Shown piece after piece: positions 146 through 27,608 of a DNA stretch of 64,000 nt. Position numbers and translations under genes: made by a program. The notes beneath the pieces are model-generated. The model was not told the DNA's origin, searched no databases, and saw only the letters and a list, made by a program, of their open reading frames with translations. How positions within the stretch are numbered: position 1 is the stretch's first letter; every line of letters begins with the position of its first letter. The DNA is from an uncultured Candidatus Saccharibacteria bacterium (lineage in GTDB: Bacteria > Patescibacteriota > Minisyncoccia > Phycocordibacterales > DATDWN01): assembly GCA_964468795.1 (NCBI GenBank), contig CAYXWL010000014.1:22376-86375 (forward strand), read 5' to 3'.

Positions 146-189
146 TCTTCTTTTTAAAGACGAAGGCCGGCCCTTTCGAGCCGACCGTA

Positions 190-852: not shown

Positions 853-974
853 GGAACCTCCTAACAAATAGACTATATAAATACACATCTTTAATCAAAT
901 TGACAAAGGTTAGAAATCTAGTAGAAATAGGTACTAGATGCAGCAATTCCGCTGCCCTATTGGAGTTCCTTTAC

Positions 975-2288: not shown

Positions 2289-2294
2289 GAAATA

Positions 2295-2328
2295 ATCCCC
2301 CGAGAGCCATTGGCTCTCGGGGGATGTG
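2295..2328. terminator. bidirectional rho-independent terminator between convergent thyX and dcd
   Basis: Perfect hairpin cccccgagagcc-attg-gctctcggggg. Confidence 0.6.
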
Positions 2329-2343
2329 TGTTTGTCTAAAAAA

Positions 2344-3465: not shown

Positions 3466-3517
3466 TATGTTGTCTCCAAAAAAGAAGATTGTTCTGAGCA
3501 CAAGACTAACACACCCT

Positions 3518-3550
3518 CCAAAATTAAAAAAGACCTCTTTCGAGGTCTTT
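3518..3550 (-). terminator. rho-independent terminator downstream of rplK
   Basis: aaagacctc-tttc-gaggtcttt followed by a T-run on the minus strand. Confidence 0.55.
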
Positions 3551-3562
3551 TTTAATTTGTAG

Positions 3563-3988
3563 TTATCCCTTGATTTCAACTCCCATGCTTCGTGCAGATC
3601 CTGCAATGATCTTCATTGCTGCATCGATGTCGTTAGCGTTGAGATCTGGCATTTTCTTTTCTGCGATCTCCTTGAGCTGGGCCTTTGTGATAGAGCCAAT
3701 CTTTGAGACTGCATTCTTTCCTGATCCCTTCTCCTTACCCATAGCCTTTAGAATAAGTGCTGATGCTGGAGGAGTCTTTAGGATAAATGTGAATGTTCGG
3801 TCCTCGTATACTGAGATTTCAACTGGAACAACATCCCCCATCATCTTTGCTGTAGCATCGTTGAACTGCTTTACGAATTCACCGATGTTAACGCCAGCCT
3901 GTCCGAGGGCAGGTCCAATAGGAGGGGCGGGGTTAGCCTTTCCTGCCTGGATGACGAGTTTTAGCTTTTTTGTAATTTTCTTTGCCAT
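3563..3988 (-). CDS. rplK: 50S ribosomal protein L11
   Basis: [35 protein letters not shown], a canonical L11 N-terminus. Confidence 0.95.
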
Positions 3989-4160
3989 GTTTTTAGCTCC
4001 ACTACTTTATTATAAAAACCTATAAAATGCAAGGGTCTAGAAACTTTCATAATTTGGATGAAATCCGAGGCGGACGAGGAAAATGTTTCGAGCCTTATTT
4101 GAAATAAGGTGAGAAATATTTTACCGAAGTCCAACAAAGGAGTTCGCCAAATTTGGAAGT

Positions 4161-4971: not shown

Positions 4972-6453
4972 CTATTTTGCACAACCATTTGCGCAACTAG
5001 TTAATGTAGCCGGAGGAGTTATATCAATAACATCCCCTTCCTGAAGTCCGGAAAGGATCTCTACATATCCATCACCGCTTTTAAGGCCAAGGCTTACTGG
5101 CGATAGCACGAATTTATCTCCAACTTTCTTCAAAACAGAAGAATTTTCTTTAGTATCAACTATTGAAAAAAGTGGAATAGAAATAACCTTGGATTTCTTA
5201 TCAGTTACAATGGTCAAGCGCGCTGTAAGACCGCTTTTCAACTCCGAATAGACTTTTTCGAATGCAATGCTGACTTTATAATTTACAACTCCGTCAATCA
5301 GAACTTCGCTAGGCTCTATATATGTTACCGTACCAGCATATTCATTGTCTGGAAACGCATCGAAAGAAATGCTGACTGGATCGCCGATTTTAACCTTTGC
5401 AATATTAATCTCTGAAACATATCCTTCTATTTCCATATTGCTATCGGATATCACCGTAACCAGTGTACGTCCTGGATTTACAATCTGCCCGACTTTTGCG
5501 TCCTGCGTTGTAACAAGCCCAGTTTGTGGCGATTTCAAAACCATTTTATTCATCTCTGAATAAATAGATTGCAATTGACCTTGATCTTGCACCACCCGAG
5601 CAACCTGGGCTTTTATAACTTCCGGAGTATTTCCGCTTTTTACCAAAATAAGTTTCTTCTTTGCCAGAGCTAGACTGGACCTTGCATCAGTAAGAGAAGA
5701 CTTGGCTGATATCAAAGTTGATCGTGCTGAGGATAAAGAGCTTCTATAAGTTGCCAAAGTTGTCTCTGGATAATTTGCACTTGGAGTCTGACTATTAACC
5801 GCTTTTGCAATTTTTTCAATGAAAGACGTAACTTGTTGCAAGCTATCATCTATCCTATCTTTGCTCCACTGTGAAAGTAGTAACTCGATATGCACCCTGT
5901 CTGTTCCGAGAGAATCTTTTAACTGACTATCTGCTAGAGGCAGGTTGAACTGAGGTGTGCTTGTATGTGGATTGCTGTATAAGTTATCAACCGTATTGCT
6001 GATTATATCCCTCACCTTGTCCTCCAAACTTTTTTCTGCATCTGAAAGTGCGCTCTCGGCATTACTTAATTCTGTTTCACTGACTGAAACCTGCTCAAAT
6101 GTAGCCCCTTTTCTCAAATTCTCTAAAATAGCCTGATCGGCCGCAACTATAGCTTTAGCTCTCATGACTTCTGCTTTCAATTCACTATCATCCAGATAAA
6201 CCAAAACATCACCTTTTTCAACATGACTGCCGACTTTCACAGAAGTGCTTGCAACCTTTCCACTAACTTCAAAACCCAAATTGACTGATGTTGCAGCTTT
6301 TGTCTTGCCGTTCACTATTACCCTCTGCACTATATCCCCAACCACAATCTTGTATTCAGTATGCTTTTCCTCTTTTGCAGTAATTTTTTTATAGCCGAAA
6401 AAGGCCCCAAAAATAAGTATTGTGAAAAAGATTAGATAAAGAACTTTTTTCAT
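4972..6453 (-). CDS. HlyD-family periplasmic adaptor (MacA-like membrane-fusion protein)
   Basis: N-terminal TM anchor, long coiled-coil section and beta-barrel/lipoyl-like segments. First gene of an operon with ABC ATPase and permease. Confidence 0.75.
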   Translation of the reverse strand: MKKVLYLIFFTILIFGAFFGYKKITAKEEKHTEYKIVVGDIVQRVIVNGKTKAATSVNLGFEVSGKVASTSVKVGSHVEKGDVLVYLDDSELKAEVMRAKAIVAADQAILENLRKGATFEQVSVSETELSNAESALSDAEKSLEDKVRDIISNTVDNLYSNPHTSTPQFNLPLADSQLKDSLGTDRVHIELLLSQWSKDRIDDSLQQVTSFIEKIAKAVNSQTPSANYPETTLATYRSSLSSARSTLISAKSSLTDARSSLALAKKKLILVKSGNTPEVIKAQVARVVQDQGQLQSIYSEMNKMVLKSPQTGLVTTQDAKVGQIVNPGRTLVTVISDSNMEIEGYVSEINIAKVKIGDPVSISFDAFPDNEYAGTVTYIEPSEVLIDGVVNYKVSIAFEKVYSELKSGLTARLTIVTDKKSKVISIPLFSIVDTKENSSVLKKVGDKFVLSPVSLGLKSGDGYVEILSGLQEGDVIDITPPATLTSCANGCAK

Positions 6454-7283
6454 AATAATTTATTGCGCACAGGAATCAGGGCTGGCAAGTCAGATTGTGA
6501 TCCTGATGTTGATTTAATTATATCAGAAATTATTTTTCCATCCGACAAAGTTATTACCCTATGCGCCATTTCAGCATAATCCTTCTCATGAGTAACCATG
6601 ATGATAGTTTGGCCGGCCCGATTAAGTTCGAGAAAAGTCTGCAAAACAATATGAGACATTTCAGTATCAAGGTTTGCTGTCGGCTCGTCGGCAAAAATAA
6701 TATCAGGATTGTGTGCAATAGCTCTTGCAATAGATATTCTCTGTTGTTGTCCACCAGAAAGCTGGTTTGGAAGAGAATATGCCTTGTCACCCAAACCGAC
6801 TTTGACCAAAGCTGATTGAGCAGCTTTCAAAGCTTCGCTTTTAGGTTCGCCGAGCATTAGCAAAGGAAGCATTATGTTATCAATCGCGCACAAATCTGGG
6901 ACCAACGCATAATCCTGAAATATATAGCCAAACTTATTTAACCGAAATGCCGTTCTTTTGCTACATATTTCAGTTAAATAAGTTTGGCTAAATATTTCAG
7001 GATTATGCAATATATAGCCAAACTTATTTAACCGAAATGCCGTTCTTTTGCTACTGCTTAAATGCGAAACATTTATATTATCAATGATAATCTCTCCACT
7101 ATCAGGTTCATCAAGCAAGCTTAGCTGATAAAGCAGTGTAGATTTTCCAGAACCTGATTTACCAGTAATAGACATGAATTGCCCCCGTGGCAATGATAGG
7201 TTTAAATTATTTAACACCACCAATCTCCCCGCTCCGGATAAATAAGACTTGGTCAGATTTTTTACGTCAATTATATATTCCAT
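6450..7283 (-). CDS. ABC transporter ATP-binding protein (MacB/LolD-like) carrying a 30-aa in-frame duplication
   Basis: Walker [10 protein letters not shown], signature [14 protein letters not shown], Walker B IIFADEP. An internal duplicated [14 protein letters not shown] segment is encoded by a palindromic DNA rearrangement at 6905-7053. Confidence 0.8.
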
Positions 7284-7286
7284 ATT

Positions 7287-8570
7287 TTATTTTCCTAAAA
7301 TGGCTTCGAGAGTATTTTGTTTTACGACCAATCTAGCCGGGATATACCCAGCTATTACCGTGACCACAATAAGCCAACCTGCTCTTAAAAGAGTTCCGCT
7401 ATAAGGAGCCACTACTATTCCGTCGCTAAACGGAAAATTAATCGGATGATTGTTTAGATAAGGTATGATGAAAAAATAAAGCACCAACATACCCAAAGAT
7501 GTTCCGATTACTGCATAAAATAGTGACTGGAGCATATAGGCAATTTCAATCGCTGTTGCATGGATGCCTATGGCCTTTAGTATTGCTATATACTTCCTGC
7601 GAGATATGGCATTTATATAAATAACAATAAATATAGTAATAAAAGCAACAACAATGCTGATTGAGCCCATAAGATCTCCGACATAGCTAAAAGTTGCAGC
7701 TACGTCTTTTACCCACTTTGGCAGAGCCTCATAAGAAGTCTGGATTTTTGCAAATCTTCCTATGCCGGCCTTTTTTAAAGCAAGCTGGACCATTTTTGGA
7801 TCTGTTCCTGGAGCAATTTTTATAGAAATTTCACCTACGTTGTAATCAACCTTTCCCATGAGCTCCCTCATAGTTTTTTGTGTGACATAAACTCGCTGAT
7901 CAACATCCCCCACCTTACTACTTAATACTCCTTTGACTGTCATCTCCTTTGTGTTGTTTCCAATCGTAACCCTAACTTTAGATCCAACATCAACATCAGA
8001 AAGCATGCTGATCCCTGGCAATTGTATAGGAGAATAATTATTGAGCAGGTTCGCACCAATAAGCAGGTAGTCATTGTCATCTTCTGATAAGTAAGTTCCG
8101 CTCACAAGATTTCTACTGAGTTCCGTAGTTAGTTCCTCTTTTCTTGGATTAATTCCGGCAATAGAAATAGTCGTAGAATTCGGCTTGTCGTTATAATTTT
8201 CTCTCTGCTTGTAAGTACCCTCGACTGTGCCTAGATGCACATATCTTGAAGAATACGCAACAGTCCACGGCATATTAGTAATTGTATTTTCAATCTGAGG
8301 CGAATTCTCGATAAAATACTTATTACTTAGATTGGATAAAATTATATCGCTGTGGTATCTCTCCCTGTAAATATCCATTGCGCTATCTGCAAGACCGACC
8401 AAAAAACCCTTAATGACGATAAAATTTATAAATGTCATCATCATTATAAAAATAATGAGAAAAGTTGTTCCCATTCGGCTATGCCTTATTTGCCTGACAA
8501 CTAGAAACCAGCCGATTTTAAATGATAGAAATAAATTTTTTATAGGCATTGCTTTTTTATATTGTATCAT
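7287..8570 (-). CDS. ABC transporter permease, FtsX/MacB-type
   Basis: N-terminal TM, large periplasmic domain and a C-terminal 3-TM FtsX-like region. Exact start is ambiguous (M at ORF start or MPIKNL). Confidence 0.75.
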   Translation of the reverse strand: MIQYKKAMPIKNLFLSFKIGWFLVVRQIRHSRMGTTFLIIFIMMMTFINFIVIKGFLVGLADSAMDIYRERYHSDIILSNLSNKYFIENSPQIENTITNMPWTVAYSSRYVHLGTVEGTYKQRENYNDKPNSTTISIAGINPRKEELTTELSRNLVSGTYLSEDDNDYLLIGANLLNNYSPIQLPGISMLSDVDVGSKVRVTIGNNTKEMTVKGVLSSKVGDVDQRVYVTQKTMRELMGKVDYNVGEISIKIAPGTDPKMVQLALKKAGIGRFAKIQTSYEALPKWVKDVAATFSYVGDLMGSISIVVAFITIFIVIYINAISRRKYIAILKAIGIHATAIEIAYMLQSLFYAVIGTSLGMLVLYFFIIPYLNNHPINFPFSDGIVVAPYSGTLLRAGWLIVVTVIAGYIPARLVVKQNTLEAILGK

Positions 8571-10076: not shown

Positions 10077-10955
10077 CTATCTTTCAAATCTTGCAAATAT
10101 GCCCGAAGGCAAAAATCTATCTGATGAATCCTTTATGTGAAGCTCTCCATGAGTAAGGTCTCCTGTGAATTCCCTGGTGATTTCAGACAATACCTGTGAG
10201 TATGTCATAGAAGAATATCCAGATGAGTATCCGTTAAGAAGTATTGCCAAAGGATCTGGTCTTAAAATCTCTTTTACCTTTTTTAAAAACGGGACTAAAT
10301 CTTCCTCGATATTCCAAACCTCTTTTTTGCTGCCCTTTCCGTAGACCGGAGGATCCATTATTACAACATCGTATTCATTCCCTCTTTTAATCTCTCTTTC
10401 TACGAACTTCCTGACATCATCCATAATGAGCCTGATTTTGCTCTCACCCAAGCCGGATTTCTTAAAATTCAGATTTGCAGTATCTATTGCAAACTTTGAA
10501 CTATCTACATGAACCACTTCCGCACCAGCTCTGCATGCAACCAGGCTTGCTCCGCCGGTATATGCAAATAAGTTCAGAACTGAAACTTTTTTTCCCTGCT
10601 CAGTTTCTTTTCTTATCTTTTCTTCAAGCCATTTCCAATTAACCACCTGTTCGGGAAAGATGCCGACATGTTTTGAAGGTAAAAGCTCTAGGGAAAAAAC
10701 AAGATTATCAAATCTAAAATCCCATGTTTTGAAATCTTTCTTTTTGTGCCATTTGCCAGTCTTTCCAGTTCTTTCGAAAAAAGCATCAGCGTCCTCCCAC
10801 TCATTCCCCAATGACCTCCTCCAAATAGCCTGAGGATCTGGTCTTCGAAGAATATACTTACCGAATCGCTCGAGTTTTTCTCCTTCCCCACTGTCTATGA
10901 GCTCATAATCAGCGGACTTTTCTGTAATAAGTATCTCGTTCATGTTACATGTCAT
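10077..10955 (-). CDS. class I SAM-dependent methyltransferase, RlmI/YwbD-like
   Basis: LNLFAYTGGASLVACRAGAEVVHVD motif I-like, IMDPPVYGKG, and a PUA-like N-terminus. Confidence 0.55.
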   Translation of the reverse strand: MTCNMNEILITEKSADYELIDSGEGEKLERFGKYILRRPDPQAIWRRSLGNEWEDADAFFERTGKTGKWHKKKDFKTWDFRFDNLVFSLELLPSKHVGIFPEQVVNWKWLEEKIRKETEQGKKVSVLNLFAYTGGASLVACRAGAEVVHVDSSKFAIDTANLNFKKSGLGESKIRLIMDDVRKFVEREIKRGNEYDVVIMDPPVYGKGSKKEVWNIEEDLVPFLKKVKEILRPDPLAILLNGYSSGYSSMTYSQVLSEITREFTGDLTHGELHIKDSSDRFLPSGIFARFER

Positions 10956-11505
10956 TTTCTAAGTTGTGCACGAGCTTCTCAGTTTTTTTCAATAGATCGT
11001 CACGCGTTCCATCGTTTACAATGACCTTATCGGCCATGGCAATGAGAGCATCGACTTGATGGGCAAACTCATCCCCGTTTCGTTCTGCATCCTCTTCTGC
11101 CTTGAATTGGTCAAAAGAAATATCATCTCCGACTCGTTTTCGCTCGAGCGCCCATTTGTAGCGTGTCTCGATCGGCGCTTCCACTGTAATCAGCACGAAG
11201 TCTGGACCAAACTCTTCTCGCAAAAACTCCACTTCCTTTATATTTCGAAGCCCAGAGATCACTGCATTGCCATTTACCTTACTGGCTGCAATCTTGGCAA
11301 GATAATCAGGGCCTCTTTCATGTCGAGATTTGATTGCATAGTGACTTACATGCGAACGATCGAGTGGGAGATTTTCCTTTCTCATCTCTTCCCTAATGAT
11401 TCCGGACGTAGATATATGAGTAAAGCCAAGCTTCGATAAATGGGTTGCCACTGTGTCCTTTCCAGCTGAAGGTGCACCAGTGAGACCTATGATTAATCTT
11501 TTCAT
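10945..11505 (-). CDS. P-loop nucleotide/nucleoside kinase-family protein (dephospho-CoA kinase / dNMP kinase-like)
   Basis: GLTGAPSAGKDT Walker A near the N-terminus; about 186 aa. Confidence 0.4.
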   Translation of the reverse strand: MKRLIIGLTGAPSAGKDTVATHLSKLGFTHISTSGIIREEMRKENLPLDRSHVSHYAIKSRHERGPDYLAKIAASKVNGNAVISGLRNIKEVEFLREEFGPDFVLITVEAPIETRYKWALERKRVGDDISFDQFKAEEDAERNGDEFAHQVDALIAMADKVIVNDGTRDDLLKKTEKLVHNLENDM

Positions 11506-11587
11506 ATACTAAGTGTATAAAAAATAATGAGAAGAAACCAGCTCTTACACAAGTTACTAAAAGTAAGCACATGCTATAATTAGCTTT

Positions 11588-12142
11588 ATGAATCTTGGCA
11601 TACTGGGTATGTATAGTGCAGCTTTCTTTTTTGGTGAATATGCAACCATTCCGTTTTTTACGTTGGCTCATCAAGGGAAACTCAACCTAACAACAATAGC
11701 ACTTATAACATACACTGCTTCTTTGTCGGCAGATCTGTTTTGGTTTGGAGCCTCTAAAATTTTTTTTAAGAAATTATATATTCAAAATTGGTATAAAAAA
11801 GCGCAACTTTCAAATCAAAAAGTGTACAATTATATATTTGAACAACACATACTCTTTGCCCTTACATTTATAAAATTTCTTATTGGCCTCAGACTTATCC
11901 TTACCTTATCTCTTATATTCGTAAAAAAATTCACCTTTAAGCAATATCTGGGTTTTGCACTCATAAGCAATTTTTTTCTAATTATTGGTCTTGATATTAT
12001 TGGATACTGTGTAAGTAAAGGACTGAATTTACTCCCTATTTATAAGGGAATATCGGGTATTATTACAATTGTAATAATAACGGTTTTGATAACCCATCTT
12101 TTTCCCTACATATTTAAATTTTATATTTCAAAACGAAAATAA
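11588..12142 (+). CDS. DedA/SNARE-associated-like membrane protein
   Basis: Multi-TM protein with FFGEYATIPFF near the N-terminus. Confidence 0.35.
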   Translation: MNLGILGMYSAAFFFGEYATIPFFTLAHQGKLNLTTIALITYTASLSADLFWFGASKIFFKKLYIQNWYKKAQLSNQKVYNYIFEQHILFALTFIKFLIGLRLILTLSLIFVKKFTFKQYLGFALISNFFLIIGLDIIGYCVSKGLNLLPIYKGISGIITIVIITVLITHLFPYIFKFYISKRK

Positions 12143-13015
12143 TTACAGATTGCCTTGTGCTTTGAGCACCTGAGTGATAATTATTCTTTTTATCTTCTGT
12201 ATTGGGTTTCTATTTCCTAAAGGCATCCATACTTTTTTTAGCTTTCTCATATATGGATCAAAATGCAACGAAGAAGGAACAACTCTTGCTTTCTCACCGA
12301 ATAAAATTCTTAAAGCTTCAGTGGAAACCAGATTCGCACATAACAGTGTACCTGTTACAAGTGAAGGAGCTTTTCGCGTCTTCCACTTTACAGCATCTGG
12401 TTTGAAGTATTTTCGTTGTAACAAAGATGGTGTCAGTCCCAGACCAAAGCGAATATATTTTTCATCATCACTCATCTTATCTGTGATATCAAAATACTTA
12501 TCAAAACTCATCCCTTTTGGGTCAAATATAAGCATAGAAGACCCGAATCCGATGGGACCTGCCATAAGCACAAACACATTATGCCTTTCAGCAGCTTTAT
12601 AGAAGATTCTACGTGCTTCTATTTCAAAAAAATCTATTCCATCAAGTGCGATGTCTACACCTTCTAAAAATTCATCAATATTGCCTTCATTTATTCCTTG
12701 GGGGTACACTCTCACCTCTGCACTCGTGTTAATTGAGGTAATCATCTTCTTTACAACCTCAACTTTTGGTTGACCGAGTACGTCGACAGAAGCTGCTTGT
12801 TGTCGATTCATATTAACTATCTCAAACACATCAAGGTCAGCAATTCTAAACTTCCCAAAACCAAGTCGTGCAAACGTAGTGGCATATATTCCTCCTGCTC
12901 CACCGAGACCTGGAATAGCGACAGTACTATTTCTTAATTTTTCTTGCTGCTCAGGAGTAAGTAACCCTATATTTCGCGAGAAGGCCTCCTTGTAGTACTC
13001 TGTTTGATTTTCCAT
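12143..13015 (-). CDS. ThiF/MoeB/HesA-family E1-like adenylyltransferase
   Basis: Rossmann fold: VAIPGLGGAGG glycine-rich loop, DLDVFEIVNMNRQ. Adenylation domain only (290 aa). Confidence 0.65.
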   Translation of the reverse strand: MENQTEYYKEAFSRNIGLLTPEQQEKLRNSTVAIPGLGGAGGIYATTFARLGFGKFRIADLDVFEIVNMNRQQAASVDVLGQPKVEVVKKMITSINTSAEVRVYPQGINEGNIDEFLEGVDIALDGIDFFEIEARRIFYKAAERHNVFVLMAGPIGFGSSMLIFDPKGMSFDKYFDITDKMSDDEKYIRFGLGLTPSLLQRKYFKPDAVKWKTRKAPSLVTGTLLCANLVSTEALRILFGEKARVVPSSLHFDPYMRKLKKVWMPLGNRNPIQKIKRIIITQVLKAQGNL

Positions 13016-13068
13016 ATAATAATTATACTATAATAATACAACATGATACAATTATTTTATCAATAGTT

Positions 13069-13737
13069 ATGACATCAGAATCAAAATTACTTCGTGCCTA
13101 CTCTGCTCCACCCTTCATATATGATCTGCGAGGTTTTTTTATTCTAACATTCTCTTATCGAAGCACGTTATGGCAGCAAGTCAGCTTTTTTGGAAAAAAT
13201 ATAGGTAAACGGCATCTAGATATTGCAGTAGGTACAGGCACATTATTGTTTATCATCTATATGTGGAGAAAAATAACCCGAAAGTCGGAAAGTAAGATCG
13301 TGGCTATAGATTATGTTCCCTCAATGCTAGAGGGTGGTAATAAATATTTTAAACACAATCCTCATGTACATTTGGAAGTTGGGGATGCGACACAACTAAA
13401 GTTTGAGTCAAACAGCTTCGATACTGTAAACATGGCAAATGCATTTCATTGTATTTCTAACATTGATGCAGCCCTTGTAGAGGTGTATCGAGTATTAAAA
13501 CCGGGAGGAATATTTGCAGTAAATATACTTCTATATCCAAAAGGAAAATGGCCATTTAAGCAGATTGCGGAGAAAATTAATATGTGGGGAATTAAAAAAG
13601 GTATACTCTATACTCCATACAACAAAGAAGACGTCCGCAAAAAAATAATTGAAAGAGGATTTGAACTTGTCTTTGAGAAAATTTCGGGTAATAGCTACAA
13701 TCTGCTTATTAAAAAACCAGCCACCCTATTTAAATAA
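13069..13737 (+). CDS. class I SAM-dependent methyltransferase (UbiE/Methyltransf_11-like)
   Basis: LDIAVGTGTLL motif I and a downstream acidic motif. Confidence 0.6.
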   Translation: MTSESKLLRAYSAPPFIYDLRGFFILTFSYRSTLWQQVSFFGKNIGKRHLDIAVGTGTLLFIIYMWRKITRKSESKIVAIDYVPSMLEGGNKYFKHNPHVHLEVGDATQLKFESNSFDTVNMANAFHCISNIDAALVEVYRVLKPGGIFAVNILLYPKGKWPFKQIAEKINMWGIKKGILYTPYNKEDVRKKIIERGFELVFEKISGNSYNLLIKKPATLFK

Positions 13738-14364
13738 AGAGTAATCAGGAACTTCTTCTAGAATCTTATCTAAAATACCTGATTTGTTCTTATTTTCTTT
13801 AATTTTTTTTACAGAAAGAGCTTGAGCAATTCCCCATGTATTCACAGAAGAATAAAATTTTTTCTCTGAAATTACTTCGAAGCCTAGTGTTGTATAAAAC
13901 ATCGCATGTTCAGGAGTTGTTGCAATAACCAAATAATCACACTCTAAATACAGTGCGTAATGAAAGACCAAATTAAGCAGTGGTAATGAGGCCATGTACT
14001 GCTTTAATGGATTAAAAGTAGAGTCATTCTTTTTAATAATATCATGGTCAATCGCATACTGAGTTACTTCTGCGAGTTTATAACCCTGAGATCTCAAGCT
14101 TTGAAGCTCATTCTTATTTAGATAATCCATTGGCAATCCGACATCAGAATCATTGACGACAGAAACCGTACCAAATAACTCACCGTTTATACCCGCAGTA
14201 AACATTTTTGTATTAGGCAATAACAGATATTTACCAAAAGATTCATCGTGACCCACGTCAGAAAAGTACCCTCTCTTTTTATATGTCGATTTAATTAGGG
14301 AAAGTACTTTCTGTTTTTCTTCTTCTGTAACAGCAACTTTATATTCGTACATAATTACATTCAA
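13726..14364 (-). CDS. GNAT-fold N-acyl amino acid synthase-like acyltransferase (FeeM/PF13444-like)
   Basis: GTVSVVNDSDVGLPMD ... AEVTQYAID pattern resembles acyl-ACP-dependent N-acyltransferases. Assignment is tentative. Confidence 0.35.
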   Translation of the reverse strand: MNVIMYEYKVAVTEEEKQKVLSLIKSTYKKRGYFSDVGHDESFGKYLLLPNTKMFTAGINGELFGTVSVVNDSDVGLPMDYLNKNELQSLRSQGYKLAEVTQYAIDHDIIKKNDSTFNPLKQYMASLPLLNLVFHYALYLECDYLVIATTPEHAMFYTTLGFEVISEKKFYSSVNTWGIAQALSVKKIKENKNKSGILDKILEEVPDYSLFK

Positions 14365-15286
14365 AATCTTGTAACATTTTTTCAGTCAAACTGGCACACT
14401 CAGCAGCTTTTACCTCAAATGAATGATGCCCTCCTTTTACCTCGTAAAAATTTCTTATTCTTAATTCATCCACTTTTCTCCTCAATTTTTTAAAATGTAC
14501 TATCCTGTCTTTTGTTGCAGCAATAACGCCTATATTATGCTTATTTTTATTAAGTACCCTTGTAATAAGCTTATGAGGCTCAATTCTGAGTATATCTATT
14601 CCATCTGAAATACTGCGAAAAAATCCTACCTTTTTCATCCAATTCACTACACTCTTCCCTTTTACCATGAGAACTCTTTTTTCCTCCTTTGTAGCCTGCA
14701 GAAATCTGTAAATTACAAATTGTAATAGATTGTTGAGCTCCATTACAATAATCCCCATATACGATATGTTCCCGGTGAGACCCGGCACCCCTTGAAGGAT
14801 GATATTCCTTAATCGATCTGGATATCTTTCTGCAAGGGCAAGCACAACAATACTTCCCTCTGAATACCCTACAGCATCAATACGTGTGATATTTTTTATT
14901 CGCAACACTTCTTCTATTGCACTCAGTTTAATGGAAAGAGACTTAGGAAGACCCGGTTCATGATTCCCCACATAAGTAAAGGGGAAAGAGAGAGAAATAA
15001 TTCTCCTCCCGGATTCATAATGAACACGCAAACCATCTTTGTAAGTTTCTGGGGTCGCCCCCCATCCGGGGACATAGAGTAGTGGAACTGATTCATCACT
15101 ATGACACATATCAGGTTGCATATCCCATACTCCTATGAGGTCATTAGCGAATGGAAATGATTCAATTTCTTTAAATTGTCTTTCAAAACCCGAACGTATT
15201 ATTTTTTCGTTCACGATGTTTTCGAGTTCAACAAGAGAAGTCTCCATAATCATATTAATCATAAAATGAATATGATAATATGGCAA
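14339..15286 (-). CDS. alpha/beta-fold hydrolase
   Basis: GYSEGS nucleophile elbow (G-x-S-x-G) and downstream His/Asp-containing segments. Confidence 0.55.
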   Translation of the reverse strand: MPYYHIHFMINMIMETSLVELENIVNEKIIRSGFERQFKEIESFPFANDLIGVWDMQPDMCHSDESVPLLYVPGWGATPETYKDGLRVHYESGRRIISLSFPFTYVGNHEPGLPKSLSIKLSAIEEVLRIKNITRIDAVGYSEGSIVVLALAERYPDRLRNIILQGVPGLTGNISYMGIIVMELNNLLQFVIYRFLQATKEEKRVLMVKGKSVVNWMKKVGFFRSISDGIDILRIEPHKLITRVLNKNKHNIGVIAATKDRIVHFKKLRRKVDELRIRNFYEVKGGHHSFEVKAAECASLTEKMLQDFECNYVRI

Positions 15287-15338
15287 TCCTTGGTATTTAC
15301 AAAAAAAAGGAATACAATTCTGTTATATTTACCCATAT

Positions 15339-15980
15339 ATGACTCACACTATCAAGCACAGCGGAGAAACATTTGTTTTTTTTATTTCTCAAACATTCTC
15401 ATTTTTCTTTATCGGCTTTCTTTTTGATATTTTTCTTAAACCAAGAATTGAAATGCCTGAAGGACTCACTATTCCCCAAGGGACTTTGATCGTTTCCAAT
15501 CACCAGAGTTGGATTGATCCGTGGGCACTCATATATTTTCTCGGACCTCAAAATATAATACCCCTGCTACCCATGCGTTTCCCGGTTACTCATAATTTTT
15601 TTCGCAAAACTATTATGGGATCGATCCTTTGGTGTTTAGGAGGATTCAATATTGGAAGTACTCCTTTAGAAAAAGCAAAAAAATTACTTTATATTCGTAA
15701 TCTTATACACCAAAAATATTCTGTACTTATATTCCCAGAAGGCAAATGGGTGCAGAATATAAAAGAGCGGTTTGAATTTAAGCGAGGTATACACATGCTC
15801 GTACATGAAGATACTCCCATACTTCTTGTCCAACTTAGTAATCTTAAAAATAATTTATTTACATATAAATTTAGACGCAGTGGTATCCGAATTAAATACT
15901 CAAGACTAATTAATAGTGGTTCTGCAAGTGAAAAAATTAAATTAATTCATGAATTTTACGGTATTCATGACAAAGTTTAA
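15339..15980 (+). CDS. PlsC-family lysophospholipid acyltransferase
   Basis: NHQSWIDP (H-x4-D) and FPEGK motifs. Confidence 0.65.
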   Translation: MTHTIKHSGETFVFFISQTFSFFFIGFLFDIFLKPRIEMPEGLTIPQGTLIVSNHQSWIDPWALIYFLGPQNIIPLLPMRFPVTHNFFRKTIMGSILWCLGGFNIGSTPLEKAKKLLYIRNLIHQKYSVLIFPEGKWVQNIKERFEFKRGIHMLVHEDTPILLVQLSNLKNNLFTYKFRRSGIRIKYSRLINSGSASEKIKLIHEFYGIHDKV

Positions 15981-16539
15981 ATTATTTCCCATTACAAACT
16001 CCCTGGAAAAACATACCACTCTTAAGGCAGAGATTGCAGATTTTCTTTCTCAAAAACTAAAAACGAATGTGTTTGCACATGAAATAACATACAAAAAGGA
16101 TGCGCTTGGAATGCCATTTTTTACCTACCGAACAGTCACTTCTCGATCTATAGGAATTACCATTTCTATTTCTGATACAAGAGATGTGTGGGCTCTCTCC
16201 ATTACAGATGAAGGTGTCATTGGACTTGATATAGAGTATATACGAGAATTAAGCTCAGAAGTTCTTGCCAACTTTCTTACAGCAAAGGAAAAAAAATGGC
16301 TAAAAACACAGCCCGTATCATATTTTAAAAAAAATACTGTTCTTTTGTGGACACTTAAGGAAGCTTATTTAAAGACCCTAGGTGTAGGACTCAGAACCCA
16401 CCCTCAAAGCATAGAAATAATACCGGATGAAGATGGTAATTTTGCTATTAGCACTCAATCTAACCCGTTTAAAGGATTATTGTGGTATAATGTAAACACT
16501 CACAAAAACTTGATAATTTCCCAAGTAATAAAACAATGA
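15949..16539 (+). CDS. 4'-phosphopantetheinyl transferase (Sfp/EntD type)
   Basis: GLDIEYI ... WTLKEAYLKTLGVG motifs. Confidence 0.65.
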   Translation: MNFTVFMTKFKLFPITNSLEKHTTLKAEIADFLSQKLKTNVFAHEITYKKDALGMPFFTYRTVTSRSIGITISISDTRDVWALSITDEGVIGLDIEYIRELSSEVLANFLTAKEKKWLKTQPVSYFKKNTVLLWTLKEAYLKTLGVGLRTHPQSIEIIPDEDGNFAISTQSNPFKGLLWYNVNTHKNLIISQVIKQ

Positions 16540-16775
16540 ATATTGAACAAAAAGTGATAAGTATTATTTCAGAAGTAACACACATCCCGTCTGAAAAGAT
16601 TACACTCGAGAACAAATTAATAGACCTTGTATCAGATTCGATTCAACTATTTGAGCTACTTATTACATTTGAAAAAGAATTAGGAGAAAAAGTGAGCTAT
16701 ACAGATGTTGCACAGATTGAATCTGTAAAAGATATCGTGGCGTACGCTTATAAAAAAAAACTATACGTTATCTAA
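16536..16775 (+). CDS. acyl carrier protein
   Basis: 79 aa with LIDLVSDSIQLFEL (DS phosphopantetheine-attachment site). Start overlaps the PPTase stop by 4 nt, suggesting translational coupling. Confidence 0.7.
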   Translation: MNIEQKVISIISEVTHIPSEKITLENKLIDLVSDSIQLFELLITFEKELGEKVSYTDVAQIESVKDIVAYAYKKKLYVI

Positions 16776-16783
16776 AGTGACCA

Positions 16784-17395
16784 CTATTGCGGATACTCAA
16801 CATTCGCATTGTTGATATGTAACTCTGGAATTAACTGAGGATTTTTAACTGTAGTTGTAATCACGATTGCTTTATACTTTAACCACCATCGTCCTTTCCA
16901 CACTTTTAAAAAAGTATCATATGGAATAGAATTGTTTCCGATAGGAAAAGCAGGATCTATTGAGGAGTTGCCATACCTCGAATCATAGATAAAAAATACT
17001 TTAGCCTTATCATCATACCCACCGACTGCAATCCAATGGAGAATTTTGGTTTTAATCAATATTGCCGGTGGCTTTCTAATTACAGCAACCTGCCGTTTTA
17101 CCCATTCTAATCGTTGGTCATCAGTGAACGCATTTAAATCCACCTCTTCACATTCCATCCCTCTAAATCTAAACAACTTCATCATGTCTGAAGGGACAAT
17201 TGGTCTAAACATATCAAACCAAATCGGCCCATGAAGCAAGTCATTCGCAGGTATCGGATGTAGCCCTATTGCTCGGGCAATCCATTCAGTGGTATATGAC
17301 CCACACCTAATTTTTGATAGATGATGAACTACAGGTACATCCTTTAGTTTGATGTAAGCTGCGGCAGGAAGTTCATTTTGAGAATTCATATTCAT
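16784..17395 (-). CDS. papain-like C39/BtrH_N-like domain protein (putative ACP-dependent acyl- or peptidyl-transferase or peptidase)
   Basis: Candidate Cys (IRCGSYTTEW) and His (ILHWIAVGGYDD) dyad, spaced as in C39/BtrH_N folds. Confidence 0.35.
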   Translation of the reverse strand: MNMNSQNELPAAAYIKLKDVPVVHHLSKIRCGSYTTEWIARAIGLHPIPANDLLHGPIWFDMFRPIVPSDMMKLFRFRGMECEEVDLNAFTDDQRLEWVKRQVAVIRKPPAILIKTKILHWIAVGGYDDKAKVFFIYDSRYGNSSIDPAFPIGNNSIPYDTFLKVWKGRWWLKYKAIVITTTVKNPQLIPELHINNANVEYPQ

Positions 17396-17404
17396 TTCTA
17401 TATA

Positions 17405-17875
17405 CTATATAAGATCAACAAGATTCAATTCGCCCCATATCTTATTGTATTTTGAAACATTTTCTTGTGGAACAATCGTACCGTCAATATTGAGGACGTA
17501 TAGTGGGGTATATTTACCACTTACCTCGTTTGTATTAACGATAAGAAGTTGGCTGAACTGGGGCCAGCTAAGCTTATCTTGAGACATATACCAATTTCGT
17601 GCTGCATCGGAGTCAACCATAAGCATAGCAAACGGCACCCAATTCTCTCGAAATACTCGATTTCCATCCTCATCTATTATTGTTATATCCTGATAATCAT
17701 CCTCACTGCAATCACCGAACAAGCTATCCATCAATTCTGTCCGGGAGTGAATCGGCACAGAATTCCAATCAAAAATAAATACAGGCTCCCTATTTTCTAT
17801 ATTGCTATCTTTCAAAGGAAACATGAGTGACCTTCCCACTAATGGTGCAATCATCTCAATAAAATTGGTACTCAT
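17405..17875 (-). CDS. hypothetical acidic protein
   Basis: ORF only; no recognisable motifs. Confidence 0.3.
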   Translation of the reverse strand: MSTNFIEMIAPLVGRSLMFPLKDSNIENREPVFIFDWNSVPIHSRTELMDSLFGDCSEDDYQDITIIDEDGNRVFRENWVPFAMLMVDSDAARNWYMSQDKLSWPQFSQLLIVNTNEVSGKYTPLYVLNIDGTIVPQENVSKYNKIWGELNLVDLI

Positions 17876-17883
17876 ACAGTGAT

Positions 17884-18306
17884 TTATTGTGACAGAGCGA
17901 TTAATTCGGGAGCTGCACCAGCTGAAGGAAGGATATAAGGCACAAGCTCGGCAGGTATTTTACATGTAAGTTCCTCGAGGCTTACACCCTCGGTGAACTC
18001 ACTGAGATCCAACCTATCCGCATCCATTCGATTAAATGGAATTTGATTCGGATCCTGGAGTGAATACGAGGTCCGTCTCATTCCCTTGATAAAGGCGCGC
18101 ACAAACCCGTCAAATTGGTCATTACTAGAGCACACCATAGAACCAGACACACTAACCTGCTCCACACCCTCGCTTTCTTCGTCATGGACAGGATCCTTGT
18201 CTTGATCAAATTGAAAATTCACAGTTAGAGACGCTTTATCAAAATCAACTTGTAATAACCTTTCTGCCCCATCCATATGTGAAAAATATAAAAGTTTCAT
18301 ATACAC
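17884..18306 (-). CDS. hypothetical acidic protein
   Basis: ORF only; no recognisable motifs. Confidence 0.3.
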   Translation of the reverse strand: MYMKLLYFSHMDGAERLLQVDFDKASLTVNFQFDQDKDPVHDEESEGVEQVSVSGSMVCSSNDQFDGFVRAFIKGMRRTSYSLQDPNQIPFNRMDADRLDLSEFTEGVSLEELTCKIPAELVPYILPSAGAAPELIALSQ

Positions 18307-18391
18307 ATTATTTTATACTATAAACATACAATTTGTAACTGTGAGAATATATTTCTAAAGTGACTCCAAAGAGTTGAGCTCCTACTTCTTG

Positions 18392-18463
18392 GGTGACTAC
18401 TGGGAGTTGAACCCAGACTAAGAGCTCCACAAGCTCGTGTGCTACCGCTACACCATAGCCACC
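18392..18463 (-). tRNA. tRNA-His (GTG) including G-1
   Basis: Cloverleaf folded by hand: extra 5' G, acceptor GTGGCTA/TAGTCAC, anticodon loop TTGTGGA (anticodon GUG), T-arm CTGGG-TTCAACT-CCCAG, discriminator C. Anticodon stem has one non-canonical pair. Confidence 0.55.
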
Positions 18464-18530
18464 ATATAAGCCTCAAAATGAGGACTTGTAATTTGTACCA
18501 CAAAAAACCTTCAAAATCCAGCTTTTTATA

Positions 18531-19814
18531 ATGTATACTCCTCGTATGAAAACCAAACCTTTCGATCCGTATGAATTTTCTAAAAAAATCATAAAAGGCG
18601 TGCCTGTTTATTACAAAACTGTCGATTCCTCGCCATGTGTTTTTGTACAGATTTCCTTTAACGTTGGATGCTCGAATGATCCCAAAGAAATTGTTGGCTT
18701 GTCGCACTTTTTGGAGCACATGATTTTTGACGGTTCGCCAAAAATACCAAACAAGAAAGCTGTTGAAGAGTGGTCTAGAGTTAATACCTTTAAATCATGG
18801 AATGCCTGGACATCTCGCACTGACACAACGTACCACCTCAGATGCCTGCCAGAAAAGATAGATACTATTTTAGATGGAATGGAAGATATGATATTTCATC
18901 CCCTGCTCCGAGCCGAGGATGTGGAGCATGAAAGAAGCGTAATCACCCAAGAAGCTTGGGGAAGATATAAAAATGATAAGTATCTCAAATATCGGAAAGA
19001 AATTACTAAGAATTTCTTTCATGGCACAACCATGGAAGATTGTGATAGTCCGCTTGGGTGGCCAGAAACGGTAGCAAAAATTTCAAGAGAAGAAGTTGCT
19101 CAATGGCATAAGAAAAATTACGGCCGAGGCAACTTCTTCATGGTTGTTGGCGGAGCAATTAACGACAAGACTTTACATAAGATAGAAAAATTTCTTGAGA
19201 GGATTCCTAAAGCAAAAGAGATTAACCGTTCAAAGAGCGTATTTAAAAAACCGCTTAATTCTCATGTCGTAAAAACAGGCGATGAAATAGGGCAAATAAA
19301 GGAACAGGCTGAAGTTGCATTTGAAAGAATTCTGCCTGTTGAGAAAAATTTTGACGAAGAAACAAACTCGATGCTTGCCGAACTAACATACGATCTTTTA
19401 TTTGAAAGGCTTAGAACAGAAAGAGCTTTATGCTATAGCGTCCATATTGAATCATTCACTTCTCCTCTATACGTCGCTTGGGCTGCCGGACTAAGAGTTG
19501 ATGAAAAAAATATCGAGGTTGTAAAAAAAGAATTTAGAAGAGCTTTGCAGGATATAATTAAAGGCAAAGAAAAAGCTAGATTTGAAACTTTGAAAAAAAT
19601 GCGGATTGAAAGACTCAAGGCGGCGGAAGAAGTTACAGAAGATATCGCCTATCACGCTATCAATCAATTGAGAAACAAAGGGAAAATAACCCCTAGAAAA
19701 GAAAGTATGAGAAAGAGAGTTAAGGTAACATATGCAGATGTAGTAGCCTGCCTAAAACAAGCCTTCGATGCTAAGTGGACGGTTACAGAGGTAATCCTGC
19801 CTTCAAAAAAATAA
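18531..19814 (+). CDS. M16-family (pitrilysin/insulinase-like) zinc metallopeptidase
   Basis: HFLEHMIF inverted zinc motif (HxxEH). Alternative start MKTKPF at 18546. Confidence 0.75.
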   Translation: MYTPRMKTKPFDPYEFSKKIIKGVPVYYKTVDSSPCVFVQISFNVGCSNDPKEIVGLSHFLEHMIFDGSPKIPNKKAVEEWSRVNTFKSWNAWTSRTDTTYHLRCLPEKIDTILDGMEDMIFHPLLRAEDVEHERSVITQEAWGRYKNDKYLKYRKEITKNFFHGTTMEDCDSPLGWPETVAKISREEVAQWHKKNYGRGNFFMVVGGAINDKTLHKIEKFLERIPKAKEINRSKSVFKKPLNSHVVKTGDEIGQIKEQAEVAFERILPVEKNFDEETNSMLAELTYDLLFERLRTERALCYSVHIESFTSPLYVAWAAGLRVDEKNIEVVKKEFRRALQDIIKGKEKARFETLKKMRIERLKAAEEVTEDIAYHAINQLRNKGKITPRKESMRKRVKVTYADVVACLKQAFDAKWTVTEVILPSKK

Positions 19815-26060: not shown

Positions 26061-26147
26061 GGATGGGTGGCTGAGTGGTCTAAAGCAACGGTCTTGAAAA
26101 CCGTCACCTGGGTAACTGGGTCGTGAGTTCGAATCTCACCCCATCCG
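26061..26147 (+). tRNA. tRNA-Ser (TGA)
   Basis: Acceptor GGATGGG/CCCATCC, anticodon stem ACGGT/ACCGT, loop CTTGAAA, long variable arm, T-arm GTGAG-TTCGAAT-CTCAC, discriminator G. Confidence 0.8.
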
Positions 26148-27608
26148 CATAGTAATATTATCGTCATCTTTTGACATCAAATCAAAAGGAGAATGCAAAG
26201 TAAAATCTAGCTTTTTTTGATTTAACACACAGTTCTGGAGTAAGAAACTTAAAAGTTGTCGTTTTTCATTTACTTCGGAACTCATAAAAATCTCTTTTGC
26301 TCTCTTGGCTATACTCAAGAGTATATTTGCTGTTACATAAAATTGTTCATCTGCTACAGAATGGTCACCCATTAACTCTAATATTTCAGCTTGTCTAGAT
26401 TTATATTCGGTTAATAACTTGTCATACATTTCTCCCGTAAGACGGCCGTCCAATCTGTCCTCGTACATCTTCCTTATTCTTATCTCATATTTATCGTAAT
26501 CAGCTTTCAAACTATTCATGCTGTTTTTATGGAACTTGTTTTCACTATCACCTAAATATCTCAATCCACTTTTTATTTCTTCAATTCTCTCATCTGATAA
26601 CTTAATGCTGTCCAAAATAGTATTCACTTGATCAATCAATTCACTTTCAGGCACATAAACTCTTTCACAGTTTTTATACCCTGAACAACTGTAATAAGCA
26701 TATTTACCCTTTTTAAGTTGTCCTCCAACAACACCTCCGCACTTAGAACAAGTTATTAATCCTCTAAACACAAAAGGTTTTGATGCATACTTTGTTGGAA
26801 CTTTATTGTGTCGCTCCATTACTTCCTGACATTTTTCAAATAATTCTTTTGAGACTATAGGTTTATATCTATGGGCATACAGTAATTTATGAGTCCTTGA
26901 ATATGCTTTACCGCAATAAAAATGGTTATTTAGCATATTAAATATCATTGCATGATTTACTTTTCCTCCTTCCTTACTTCGCAAACCAAAATCATACATT
27001 CTGTCAGATAGAGTAACAAAAGATACATCTCCCTTGGAATATTCCTCAAATGTCTTAACGACTAGATGAGCTTTTCCATCTGGAACAACATCAACTCTTC
27101 TCATCCTTAGTGGATTATTGTTATATACACTTTTGTATCCAAGTGGAGGTGCTCCGGTTATATCTCCATCTTCTCTCATCTTGCCTTGCTTTCTCTTTAG
27201 GTTATCACTCAATTGCAATACATAATTTCTAGCAAACAGGACTGACATATCCCACCTCATAAGATCAGCACTATTTGAATTTTTATTTATTACCAAGTTC
27301 TCTCTATAAAAATGAAGCTCGACCTTTTCTGCTTTTCTTAAATCATCAAATACAACTGACTCTCTGAAACTTCTTTGTAGTCTGTCTACAGTATCAACCA
27401 CCAAAGCCAAAGGTTCTTTAGATCTTTGTATTATTTCAATAATCTCATGAAACTTTTTTCTATCTCCTTTGGTTGATGACTCTTTAAGTTTAAACACTTT
27501 CCACTCCTCTAAATCTCTGTTTTTTACATAGGACATTATTCTAGATAACTGTGCTTCGTTTGAGTCCTGATTTTTGTCAGAAACTCTAGCTAATATAATT
27601 GTTTTCAT
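26136..27608 (-). CDS. large serine recombinase (resolvase catalytic domain + recombinase domain + zinc ribbon)
   Basis: ILARVSDKNQ catalytic-Ser motif and VVDTVDRLQRSF. C-terminal CSKCGG...YYSCSGYKNCE Zn-ribbon. Stop codon lies inside the tRNA-Ser 3' end. Confidence 0.85.
   Translation of the reverse strand: MKTIILARVSDKNQDSNEAQLSRIMSYVKNRDLEEWKVFKLKESSTKGDRKKFHEIIEIIQRSKEPLALVVDTVDRLQRSFRESVVFDDLRKAEKVELHFYRENLVINKNSNSADLMRWDMSVLFARNYVLQLSDNLKRKQGKMREDGDITGAPPLGYKSVYNNNPLRMRRVDVVPDGKAHLVVKTFEEYSKGDVSFVTLSDRMYDFGLRSKEGGKVNHAMIFNMLNNHFYCGKAYSRTHKLLYAHRYKPIVSKELFEKCQEVMERHNKVPTKYASKPFVFRGLITCSKCGGVVGGQLKKGKYAYYSCSGYKNCERVYVPESELIDQVNTILDSIKLSDERIEEIKSGLRYLGDSENKFHKNSMNSLKADYDKYEIRIRKMYEDRLDGRLTGEMYDKLLTEYKSRQAEILELMGDHSVADEQFYVTANILLSIAKRAKEIFMSSEVNEKRQLLSFLLQNCVLNQKKLDFTLHSPFDLMSKDDDNITMRMG

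Follow-up and report, generated by a model that had tools for sequence, protein, structure and literature searches.

Acyl-oxazolone pathways have been described with OxzA and OxzB of Pseudoalteromonas rubra (bioRxiv 10.1101/2020.06.11.147165; reviewed in PMC12596934), with TyzA, TyzB and TyzC (PMC10404671) and with TrzA and TrzS of Mycobacterium tuberculosis (PMC12856293). In these pathways Tyr, Phe or Trp is N-acylated by a synthase, after which a ThiF-like enzyme uses ATP to close the product into an oxazolone, which a nitroreductase-type flavin oxidase (FDO) then desaturates (PMC10404671, PMC12856293, PMC12596934); a TrzS variant with an inactive FDO still yields the saturated cyclised intermediate (PMC12856293). 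The synthases TyzA, OxzA and TrzA use acyl-CoA and not an acylated acyl carrier protein (ACP) (PMC10404671, PMC12856293), and the synthase FeeM is cited in PMC10404671 as being dependent on acyl-ACP. Relatives of the genera Stieleria and Undibacterium make stieleriacines and kyonggic acids, and in the candidate clusters for these compounds a ThiF gene lies beside the genes for an N-acyl amino acid synthase (NAS) and an FDO (PMC12479983). Here we analyse a gene cluster at positions 12143-18306 of a 64-kb stretch of DNA from an uncultured Candidatus Saccharibacteria bacterium (the whole stretch is called the window; the genes are labelled g1-g10, plus g0), in which a ThiF-like enzyme and a FeeM-type synthase are encoded together with an ACP. 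We consider it fairly probable that a lipid derived from an N-acyl amino acid is made by a self-contained pathway encoded in the cluster, and that this pathway derives from systems composed of a NAS and a ThiF-like cyclase (plus a flavin oxidase).

The ThiF-like enzyme, the synthase and the carrier protein

All ten open reading frames (ORFs) that a preliminary description had reported for this region were found where it had located them, and eight of the ten have the domains it had named, seven by Pfam and NCBIfam matches and g8 by its fold. For the ThiF-like protein, the alpha/beta hydrolase with its GYSEG motif, the PlsC-type acyltransferase, the phosphopantetheinyl transferase (PPTase) and the ACP, the sequence motifs were also in agreement.

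The product of g1 (12143-13015, minus strand) is a ThiF-like enzyme predicted to adenylate carboxylates with ATP and to act as an N-acyl amino acid activase or cyclase. It matched PF00899 (ThiF) with E=2.7e-41 and passed the cut-off of the NCBIfam family NF006077/PRK08223 (347 bits, cut-off 266 bits); its scores on the ThiF/MoeB equivalogs were far under the cut-off. In addition, g1 aligned with the first 300 residues of PRK14851 (679 aa) and with a central part of PRK14852 (989 aa); the N-terminal part of PRK14852 matches g3. ThiF proteins of the PRK08223 family that are encoded beside FeeM and FDO in Stieleria mannarensis (L053, 415 bits) and Undibacterium (L082, 450 bits) are 44-45% identical to g1. 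The family-invariant residues R14, GLGGAG at 36-41 (GxGxxG), D60, N68/R71/Q72 (NxxRQ), K84 and D125 are all kept in g1, which contains a single Cys, one shared by 13 of the 24 members of the family, and lacks a CxxC motif. The retention of the adenylation residues together with the lack of a conserved Cys fits a cyclase or adenylase and not a thioester-forming E1, and argues against E1-type thioester or sulfur-relay chemistry on g1 itself. The preliminary description had inferred a pathway that loads an acyl or aminoacyl group onto the ACP; the expected substrate of g1 is the carboxylate of an N-acyl amino acid, and neither a protein nor an amino acid destined for the ACP. Among solved structures the best relative of g1 is PDB entry 9EGB (the comparison included 9EGB, 9EGC and 9EGD), and a literature search on 9EGB found nothing. 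A role in defence was considered and dropped, since PADLOC applied to g0, g1, g4, g8, g9 and g10 gave only generic Rossmann-level E1 matches, for g1.

The assignment of g3 (13726-14364, minus strand) as FeeM-like held: the protein is a FeeM-type NAS that matched PF21926 (E=7e-29) and the FeeM crystal structure 2G0B (E=2.4e-28). The OlsB/GlsB-type family PF13444 (Acetyltransf_5), which had been suggested for it, was not matched at E<=0.1. The g6 gene (15949-16539, plus strand) encodes a 4'-phosphopantetheinyl transferase of the Sfp type rather than the AcpS type (PF01648, E=2.7e-17; motifs GLDIE and WTLKEAYLK), and g7 (16536-16775, plus strand) a dedicated ACP (PF00550, E=5e-10) with the DS motif at residues 34-35 (Ser35). 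The PPTase motifs, the DS serine and the adjacency of the two genes are thus all present, as is the translational coupling noted previously, which takes the form of an ATGA overlap of the g6 stop with the g7 start. On the housekeeping AcpP models g7 reached 45 bits (cut-off 71). The match of g3 to FeeM and the presence of an ACP in the same cluster are shared with the fee cluster from environmental DNA, which encodes the N-acyl tyrosine synthase FeeM and the ACP FeeL; that cluster is not known to encode a ThiF-like enzyme, an acyltransferase of the PlsC type or a papain-like protein.

The g5 gene (15339-15980, plus strand) encodes a PlsC-superfamily acyltransferase with an N-terminal hydrophobic anchor (PF01553, E=6e-15), which contains HQSWID at residues 55-60 and FPEGKW at residue 132. 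HX4D and FPEG are kept across 15 cluster-linked homologues and the Arg of the canonical FPEGTR is not; g5 appears to belong to a distinct PlsC-type subfamily that lacks this arginine. All of its NCBIfam acyltransferase scores, including those on the OlsA-specific and PlsC equivalogs, were under the cut-off.

A GNAT N-acyltransferase encoded together with a PlsC-type O-acyltransferase is the hallmark of ornithine and glycine lipids (PMC12493201), and in the cluster both are present and co-conserved. Like OlsB/OlsA, GlsB/GlsA and OlsF, the cluster might therefore serve a membrane or envelope lipid: in an acyloxyacyl aminolipid route the GNAT would make a lyso-aminolipid from 3-hydroxyacyl-ACP, the PlsC-type enzyme would add an ester-linked chain, and the ThiF, the methyltransferase and the hydrolase would modify the head group. 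The linkage of export pumps would suit such a route, and so would the alpha/beta hydrolase g4, given that OlsI, a protein of this fold, is able to serve as the O-acyltransferase in aminolipid pathways (PMC12493201). However, the GNAT of the window is of the FeeM type, with PF21926 and not PF13444 as its family, g5 gave no OlsA-specific signal, and g4 was rejected as an OlsI (20 bits against a cut-off of 385). Moreover, the source of 3-hydroxyacyl-ACP is not evident in a type of genome thought to lack fatty acid synthesis (FAS), and the route would leave the family-wide link of ThiF, NAS and FDO described below unexplained. We consider it unlikely.

Comparison of the ThiF-family loci

The comparison set consisted of 80 fetched loci of the ThiF family, which together with the contig of the window (L001) and with L007, L009 and L010 made 84 non-redundant loci. 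Their six-frame ORFs were analysed by phmmer, hidden Markov models (HMMs) and clustering, and a neighbour-joining tree of the ThiF proteins was built. A FeeM-like gene was found nearby in 57 of the 84 loci (at a distance of 6 kb or less in 54), and an FDO, fused or adjacent, in 60. The FDO belongs to the nitroreductase family PF00881 and carries an N-terminal APSGDNxQPW motif; it occurs alone, with 350-410 aa, or fused with ThiF into a protein of about 680 aa, and matches the oxidase half of the Rv1355c/TrzS family as well as the Acg family. The possibility that the proteins of 350-410 aa represent a second copy of ThiF was rejected, as they are nitroreductase-type FDOs that single linkage had joined through the fusion proteins. 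Judged by its sequences, this gene context is the architecture of the OxzAB, TyzABC and TrzAS systems for acyl-oxazolones and N-acyl-dehydrotyrosines. The E1-like enzyme is therefore no unexplained oddity, since the members of its family accompany N-acyl amino acid synthases and, in most cases, also an oxidase of the nitroreductase type.

In 16 of the 84 loci a PlsC-type acyltransferase, an Sfp-type PPTase and an ACP are encoded beside ThiF and FeeM, with a shuffled gene order in which ThiF-PlsC-PPT-ACP-FeeM recurs. The ThiF proteins of these loci form one clade of the tree, and the loci are labelled as Moraniibacteriota, Saccharibacteria, Paceibacterota, Patescibacteria or "Bdellovibrionales", or are unclassified. 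Thus, the combination of a private ACP/PPTase pair with an E1-like enzyme, which had been thought unusual, is recurrent in Patescibacteria-type genomes. Many of the ACP-bearing loci also encode one or two membrane-anchored GDSL lipases and a small membrane protein of the g0 type; no GDSL lipase was matched in the six frames of the window. The nearest relatives of g8 and g1 belong to metagenome-assembled genomes (MAGs) of Candidatus Moranbacteria/Moraniibacteriota, which points to a genome of the Patescibacteria type as the source of the window, and the cluster itself is present in identical copies on several metagenome contigs. In the locus L068 (4238-6742) a single protein of 835 aa, in which AMP-binding, PP-binding (ACP) and PlsC-type domains are fused, adjoins ThiF and FDO; this natural fusion connects the activation of fatty acids with the carrier and the acyltransferase and supports a functional link of the ACP with the PlsC-type enzyme. 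An AMP-ligase is encoded nearby in five of the 84 loci.

The co-occurrence of these genes in other genomes, which the preliminary description had proposed as a check, was found to extend to conserved synteny, so they cannot be regarded as independently conserved housekeeping genes: the core genes recur together in many independent genomes with their order shuffled, and their clustering therefore goes beyond chance. Reduced genomes do pack unrelated genes tightly, and the genes of the window lie on both strands, so that one might see in the ACP, the PPTase and the PlsC-type enzyme housekeeping genes of phospholipid remodelling that by chance adjoin unrelated genes. Nevertheless, the fact that five gene families adjoin each other, in rearranged order, in 16 loci that come from other MAGs as well as from several lineages of Patescibacteria makes such a coincidence very improbable, as do the scores of the ACP under the housekeeping AcpP cut-offs and the Sfp type of the PPTase.

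Among the 16 ACP-bearing loci, the FDO is kept in seven and not in nine. An HMM built from six locus proteins, the same one that finds the FDO in 60 of the 84 loci, gave no match at E<=10 when all six frames of the 64-kb window were searched. Since the nearest ThiF relative of the window (L012, 65% identity) does have an FDO, the oxidase has been lost repeatedly. In three loci a FAD_binding_4 oxidase was found: it lies between ThiF and the g8 homologue in L011 (4174-5820) and L091 (854-2497), in neither of which an FDO was seen within the sequence at hand, and near the module in L045 (5735-7363). This flavoprotein may be an alternative oxidase that replaces the nitroreductase-type FDO in those loci; no FAD_binding_4 oxidase was matched in the six frames of the window.

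The cluster therefore has in common with the Oxz, Tyz and Trz systems a FeeM-fold synthase beside a ThiF-like ATP-dependent enzyme, and its ThiF belongs to a family in which most loci (60 of 84) carry the FDO, but it differs from them by the absence of the FDO from the 64 kb and by the addition of a dedicated ACP, a PPTase, a PlsC-type acyltransferase, a papain-like enzyme, a methyltransferase and an alpha/beta hydrolase. A clustered NasY-type synthase, a ThiF and a UbiE-like methyltransferase are likewise found in the candidate clusters for stieleriacines (Stieleria), kyonggic acids (Massilia) and thalassotalic acids; these, however, have a nitroreductase and draw on housekeeping acyl donors, and they contain neither the ACP/PPTase/PlsC set nor the C39-like protein. 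Our literature search found no report of the variant, nothing on an E1-like enzyme combined with an N-acyl amino acid synthase, and nothing relevant on Patescibacteria and N-acyl amino acids. Both the clade of 16 loci, mostly of Patescibacteria, that adds a PlsC-type enzyme, a PPTase and an ACP, and the lineage of the window, without an FDO in 64 kb and with a C39-like protein, a methyltransferase and a hydrolase, appear not to have been described.

Proposed pathway and its alternatives

The analysis shows to which families the proteins belong, that the synteny is conserved, and that the window lacks the oxidase; from this we infer the following chemistry. As follows from the families, the Sfp-type PPTase g6 would convert the ACP g7 into its holo form. 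The synthase g3 would then move an acyl chain from g7 onto the amino group of an amino acid; the role of g7 as the acyl donor is suggested by the precedent of FeeM and by the recurrent adjacency of the ACP and FeeM genes. With ATP, g1 would adenylate the free carboxylate of the resulting N-acyl amino acid, an activity proposed from its family link and by analogy with TyzB, OxzB and TrzS; in the characterised relatives the ring is closed to a 5(4H)-oxazolone. For want of a nitroreductase-type oxidase, the activated product is expected to remain saturated and reactive. It would be a saturated, hydrolytically labile azlactone, an intermediate of the kind that the TrzS variant with an inactive FDO makes (PMC12856293), and would probably undergo hydrolysis or capture by a nucleophile, or else the adenylate itself would be captured by another nucleophile. 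The enzymes g5, g8, g4 and g2 could provide a second acylation, acyl transfer or release, and methylation, and the recurrent synteny of g0 and of a MacB-type pump with the module suggests that these proteins would move the lipid out. The dedicated, ACP-centred accessory pathway of the preliminary description is thus retained, with a lipoamino acid or N-acylated metabolite as the most likely class of product.

Several points weigh against this pathway. The FDO, the defining third component of the known pathways, is missing from the window, and the product therefore cannot be the known unsaturated oxazolone, unless the oxidase is encoded elsewhere. The use of acyl-CoA by TyzA, OxzA and TrzA means that the role of the ACP as donor is not secured. 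Furthermore, no AMP-ligase or acyl-ACP synthetase was matched in the six frames of the window, and in line with the earlier statement that no type II FAS genes are nearby, none was present in the Pfam lists for about 10 kb on each side or among the larger window ORFs that were sampled, the window not being exhaustively annotated. On the Rv1355c/TrzS model g1 scored 72 bits, no better than the 92 bits on ThiF proper; by this NCBIfam score g1 is no close orthologue of TrzS, and the transfer of function rests on gene context and not on close orthology. The product and the biochemistry of the cluster are predictions made from sequence, and the roles given to g2, g4, g5 and g8 are guesses.

The papain-like protein g8 (16784-17395, minus strand) has no Pfam match of its own, and the C39/BtrH_N-like character ascribed to it was borne out at the level of the fold. 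An AlphaFold model on the 16-member family of g8 gave a papain fold (predicted local distance difference test, pLDDT, 85) with a Cys at the N-terminus of a helix, followed by strands that carry His and Asp. Within the family C31 and H120 do not vary and D138 hardly does; thus, g8 has a Cys/His(/Asp) triad on a papain fold. Weak matches to Peptidase_C39_2 were obtained for 8 and to BtrH_N for 5 of the 16 members; the remote sequence relatives are Peptidase_C39_2 proteins, with BtrH_N as a secondary match, and the best structural neighbours include double-glycine C39 leader peptidases and UFM1/ubiquitin-type proteases. With 16 proteins among 5.8 billion clusters and 6 matches at E<1e-30 among 1.84 billion representatives, g8 forms a very small family of its own. 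The papain fold is common to g8, the C39 leader peptidases, the phytochelatin-synthase-like Alr0975 and the BtrH-type transferases, but in contrast to the leader peptidases g8 is a stand-alone cytoplasmic protein of 203 aa that is not fused to an ABC transporter, and no double-glycine substrate is evident. It is predicted to be an acyl-thioester hydrolase or transferase. In all nine readable contexts (the window, L007, L009, L010, L011, L091, L093, L094 and L095) the g8 gene lies inside the module, and it adjoins the ACP gene in the window, L007 and L009. An FDO was seen in none of the nine within the sequence at hand; four of them are contigs of less than 4 kb, for which its absence is weak evidence.

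These properties of g8 bear on the possibility that the cluster modifies a peptide or protein, in the manner of peptides that are ribosomally synthesised and modified post-translationally (RiPPs) of the microcin-C or pantocin type, or of ubiquitin-like systems. In that case g1 would adenylate a small protein or peptide, possibly g9 or g10, at its C-terminus, and the C39-like protease would process it. The ThiF relatives MccB and PaaA do work on peptide C-termini (reviewed in PMC12596934), leader peptidases and ubiquitin-type proteases are among the structural neighbours of g8, and two small acidic ORFs lie directly upstream of it. However, g9 and g10 are not conserved with the module, g9 is an ORFan, and neither ends in Gly-Gly; no conserved precursor gene was found across the nine g8 contexts, and no ThiS, MoaD or ubiquitin-like gene was present among the domain matches or the recurrent neighbour clusters, no search dedicated to such genes having been made. 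Furthermore, g1 has no conserved Cys and no CxxC, its family is overwhelmingly tied to genes for NAS and FDO proteins, g8 lacks a fused ABC exporter, and the PADLOC matches were generic. Modification of a peptide by this cluster is therefore highly improbable.

Another alternative is a relay from ThiF to a thiol. Beyond cyclisation, g1 would adenylate the N-acyl amino acid (or a fatty acid scavenged by the cell) and load it on a thiol, either that of the phosphopantetheine on the ACP or that of Cys31 in g8, and the PlsC-type or papain-like transferase would pass the acyl group to a hydroxyl or amine acceptor, for example a lysolipid, a polyamine or a component of the cell wall. E1-family chemistry usually ends in attack by a thiol (PMC12596934), ThiF adjoins a PlsC-type gene in many loci (L016, L021, L043, L045 and L007), g8 was seen only where no FDO was found in the sequence at hand and adjoins the ACP in three contexts, and a separate acyl-ACP synthetase is missing from the window and nearby in only 5 of the 84 loci. 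On the other hand, there is no precedent of a ThiF-type enzyme that loads a carrier protein, seven of the 16 ACP-bearing loci keep the FDO, which points to ordinary oxazolone chemistry in them, and the ACP is already explained by FeeM, a known user of acyl-ACP. We regard this relay as rather unlikely. A version of it in which the whole module, in bacteria thought to lack FAS, is an E1-to-thiol relay for a lipid in place of a protein seems quite unlikely to us: because the oxidase was lost, the activated acyl group would be passed on, the adenylated N-acyl amino acid becoming a thioester on the ACP or, in an E2-like manner, on Cys31, and then being ligated to an acceptor with an amine or hydroxyl group, which could belong to the cell envelope or to the host. 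In a related form of this idea, the saturated azlactone, formed at the expense of ATP, would serve for epimerisation of the alpha-carbon of the lipoamino acid or for C-methylation of this carbon by the adjacent UbiE-like methyltransferase.

If the favoured pathway of N-acyl amino acid-derived lipid formation is correct, a module of about 6 kb, composed of an ACP, a PPTase, a synthase, a ThiF-type activase, acyltransferases and a pump, should make and export such a lipid. According to the general view, Patescibacteria (Candidate Phyla Radiation, CPR) depend on host cells and lack the biosynthesis of lipids and of most secondary metabolites; with this module they would have a defined lipid or signal that they make themselves. 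Since bioactivity is known for N-acyl amino acids and acyl-oxazolones of other bacteria, this lipid would be a candidate mediator of host attachment or antagonism. The ACP-linked branch and the repeated loss of the oxidase also extend what is known of acyl-oxazolones and ThiF cyclases, and raise the question of the role of a ThiF cyclase alone.

Accessory genes and surroundings of the cluster

The number of genes in the cluster needed revision, as about eight of the ten are supported as members, g0, a likely member, had been omitted, and a MacB-type pump probably belongs to the module as well. The UbiE-like S-adenosylmethionine-dependent methyltransferase g2 (13069-13737, plus strand; Methyltransf_11, E=4e-19) is encoded divergently from g1 and would be a lineage-variable tailoring enzyme. 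A methyltransferase gene directly upstream of and divergent from ThiF was found in four lineages (the window, L009, L010 and L020), and more distant methyltransferases are encoded beside ThiF/FDO in L053, L042 and L077. The alpha/beta-fold hydrolase or acyltransferase g4 (14339-15286, minus strand; start at about 15247-15262 according to gene callers) has GYSEG at residue 140 and a weak match to Abhydrolase_1 (E=6.5e-6); with homologues only in L009 and L095, it is a lineage-specific accessory.

Abutting g1, g0 (11588-12142, plus strand) encodes a conserved polytopic membrane protein of 184 aa, for which no Pfam or NCBIfam family was matched. Its homologues adjoin the module in L009, L013, L014, L015 and L019 (E=1e-68 to 1e-81), and g0 is likely a member of the module that acts in lipid handling or export. 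At 4972-8570 (minus strand), 3.5 kb from the cluster and separated from it by unrelated genes, lies a MacB-type tripartite pump composed of a membrane-fusion protein, an ABC ATPase and an FtsX permease (matches to HlyD/RND_mfp, ABC_tran and FtsX). The FtsX of the window falls in the same homologue cluster as pumps that lie within 6 kb of ThiF in 22 of the 84 loci, including 12 of the 16 ACP-bearing ones, and the pump is the probable exporter of the module. Lipid-export genes thus recur beside the module, as MacB-type pumps and, in proteobacteria, as MMPL, LolA-like and DUF1302 genes. The latter were seen in didermic loci of Desulfobacterales, Omnitrophota and gammaproteobacterial origin (L023, L024, L026, L063, L077 and L087), where ThiF-FDO/FeeM is flanked by an MMPL/RND-type transporter, a LolA-like protein and a DUF1302 outer-membrane protein, which suggests lipid export to the outer membrane; a second GNAT (PF13444/FeeM-like) flanks the same loci.

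The acidic ORFs g9 (17405-17875, pI 4.2) and g10 (17884-18306, pI 4.3) lie upstream of g8 on the same (minus) strand. They gave no family match and no match in other loci beyond near-identical contigs, and they are unrelated to the small membrane protein encoded beside g8 or ThiF in L010 and L011. A search with g9 among 5.8 billion clusters found only g9 itself. Both appear to be strain-specific, and their membership of the module is not supported.

Promoter-like sites in the region 11400-18800 numbered 38, where 28 +/- 5 were expected, and terminator-like sites 6, where 4.4 were expected; these counts were uninformative. A tRNA gene (18392-18462, minus strand) borders the cluster directly after g10. 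The cluster at 12-16 kb is slightly more A+T-rich than its flanks (34.7-35.2% versus 38.5-39.5% G+C), and in L009 the neighbours on the g8 side of the module are different. The bordering tRNA gene, the A+T-rich composition and the differing neighbours fit an accessory, rearranging region. A kinase gene at 10945-11505 was considered as CoaE and rejected, having only generic nucleotide-kinase matches.

Elsewhere in the window, positions 1-4000 have a G+C content of 52% compared to about 38% for the rest and contain no rRNA. The ORFs at 900-2288 (plus strand) and 2344-3606 (minus strand) encode a long ThyX-like protein of 462 aa with a Thy1 domain and a protein with two domains that resembles dCTP deaminase, and this part of the window may represent horizontally acquired genes of nucleotide metabolism or DNA modification. 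A large serine recombinase (26136-27608, minus strand; Resolvase, Recombinase and Zn_ribbon_recom) overlaps the end of an 87-nt tRNA gene (26061-26147), and the region 26061-27608 may be an integrated element. Beside MurJ and LepA, an ORF of 875 aa (54350-56977, minus strand) encodes a large, otherwise unannotated envelope protein, the sole recognisable domain of which is a C-terminal PG_binding_1. Finally, a full-length LOOT RNA (RF03000) was detected at 31257-31374 (plus strand) with 81 bits against a gathering score of 46.4, within a local G+C peak at 30-32 kb (44.9%).

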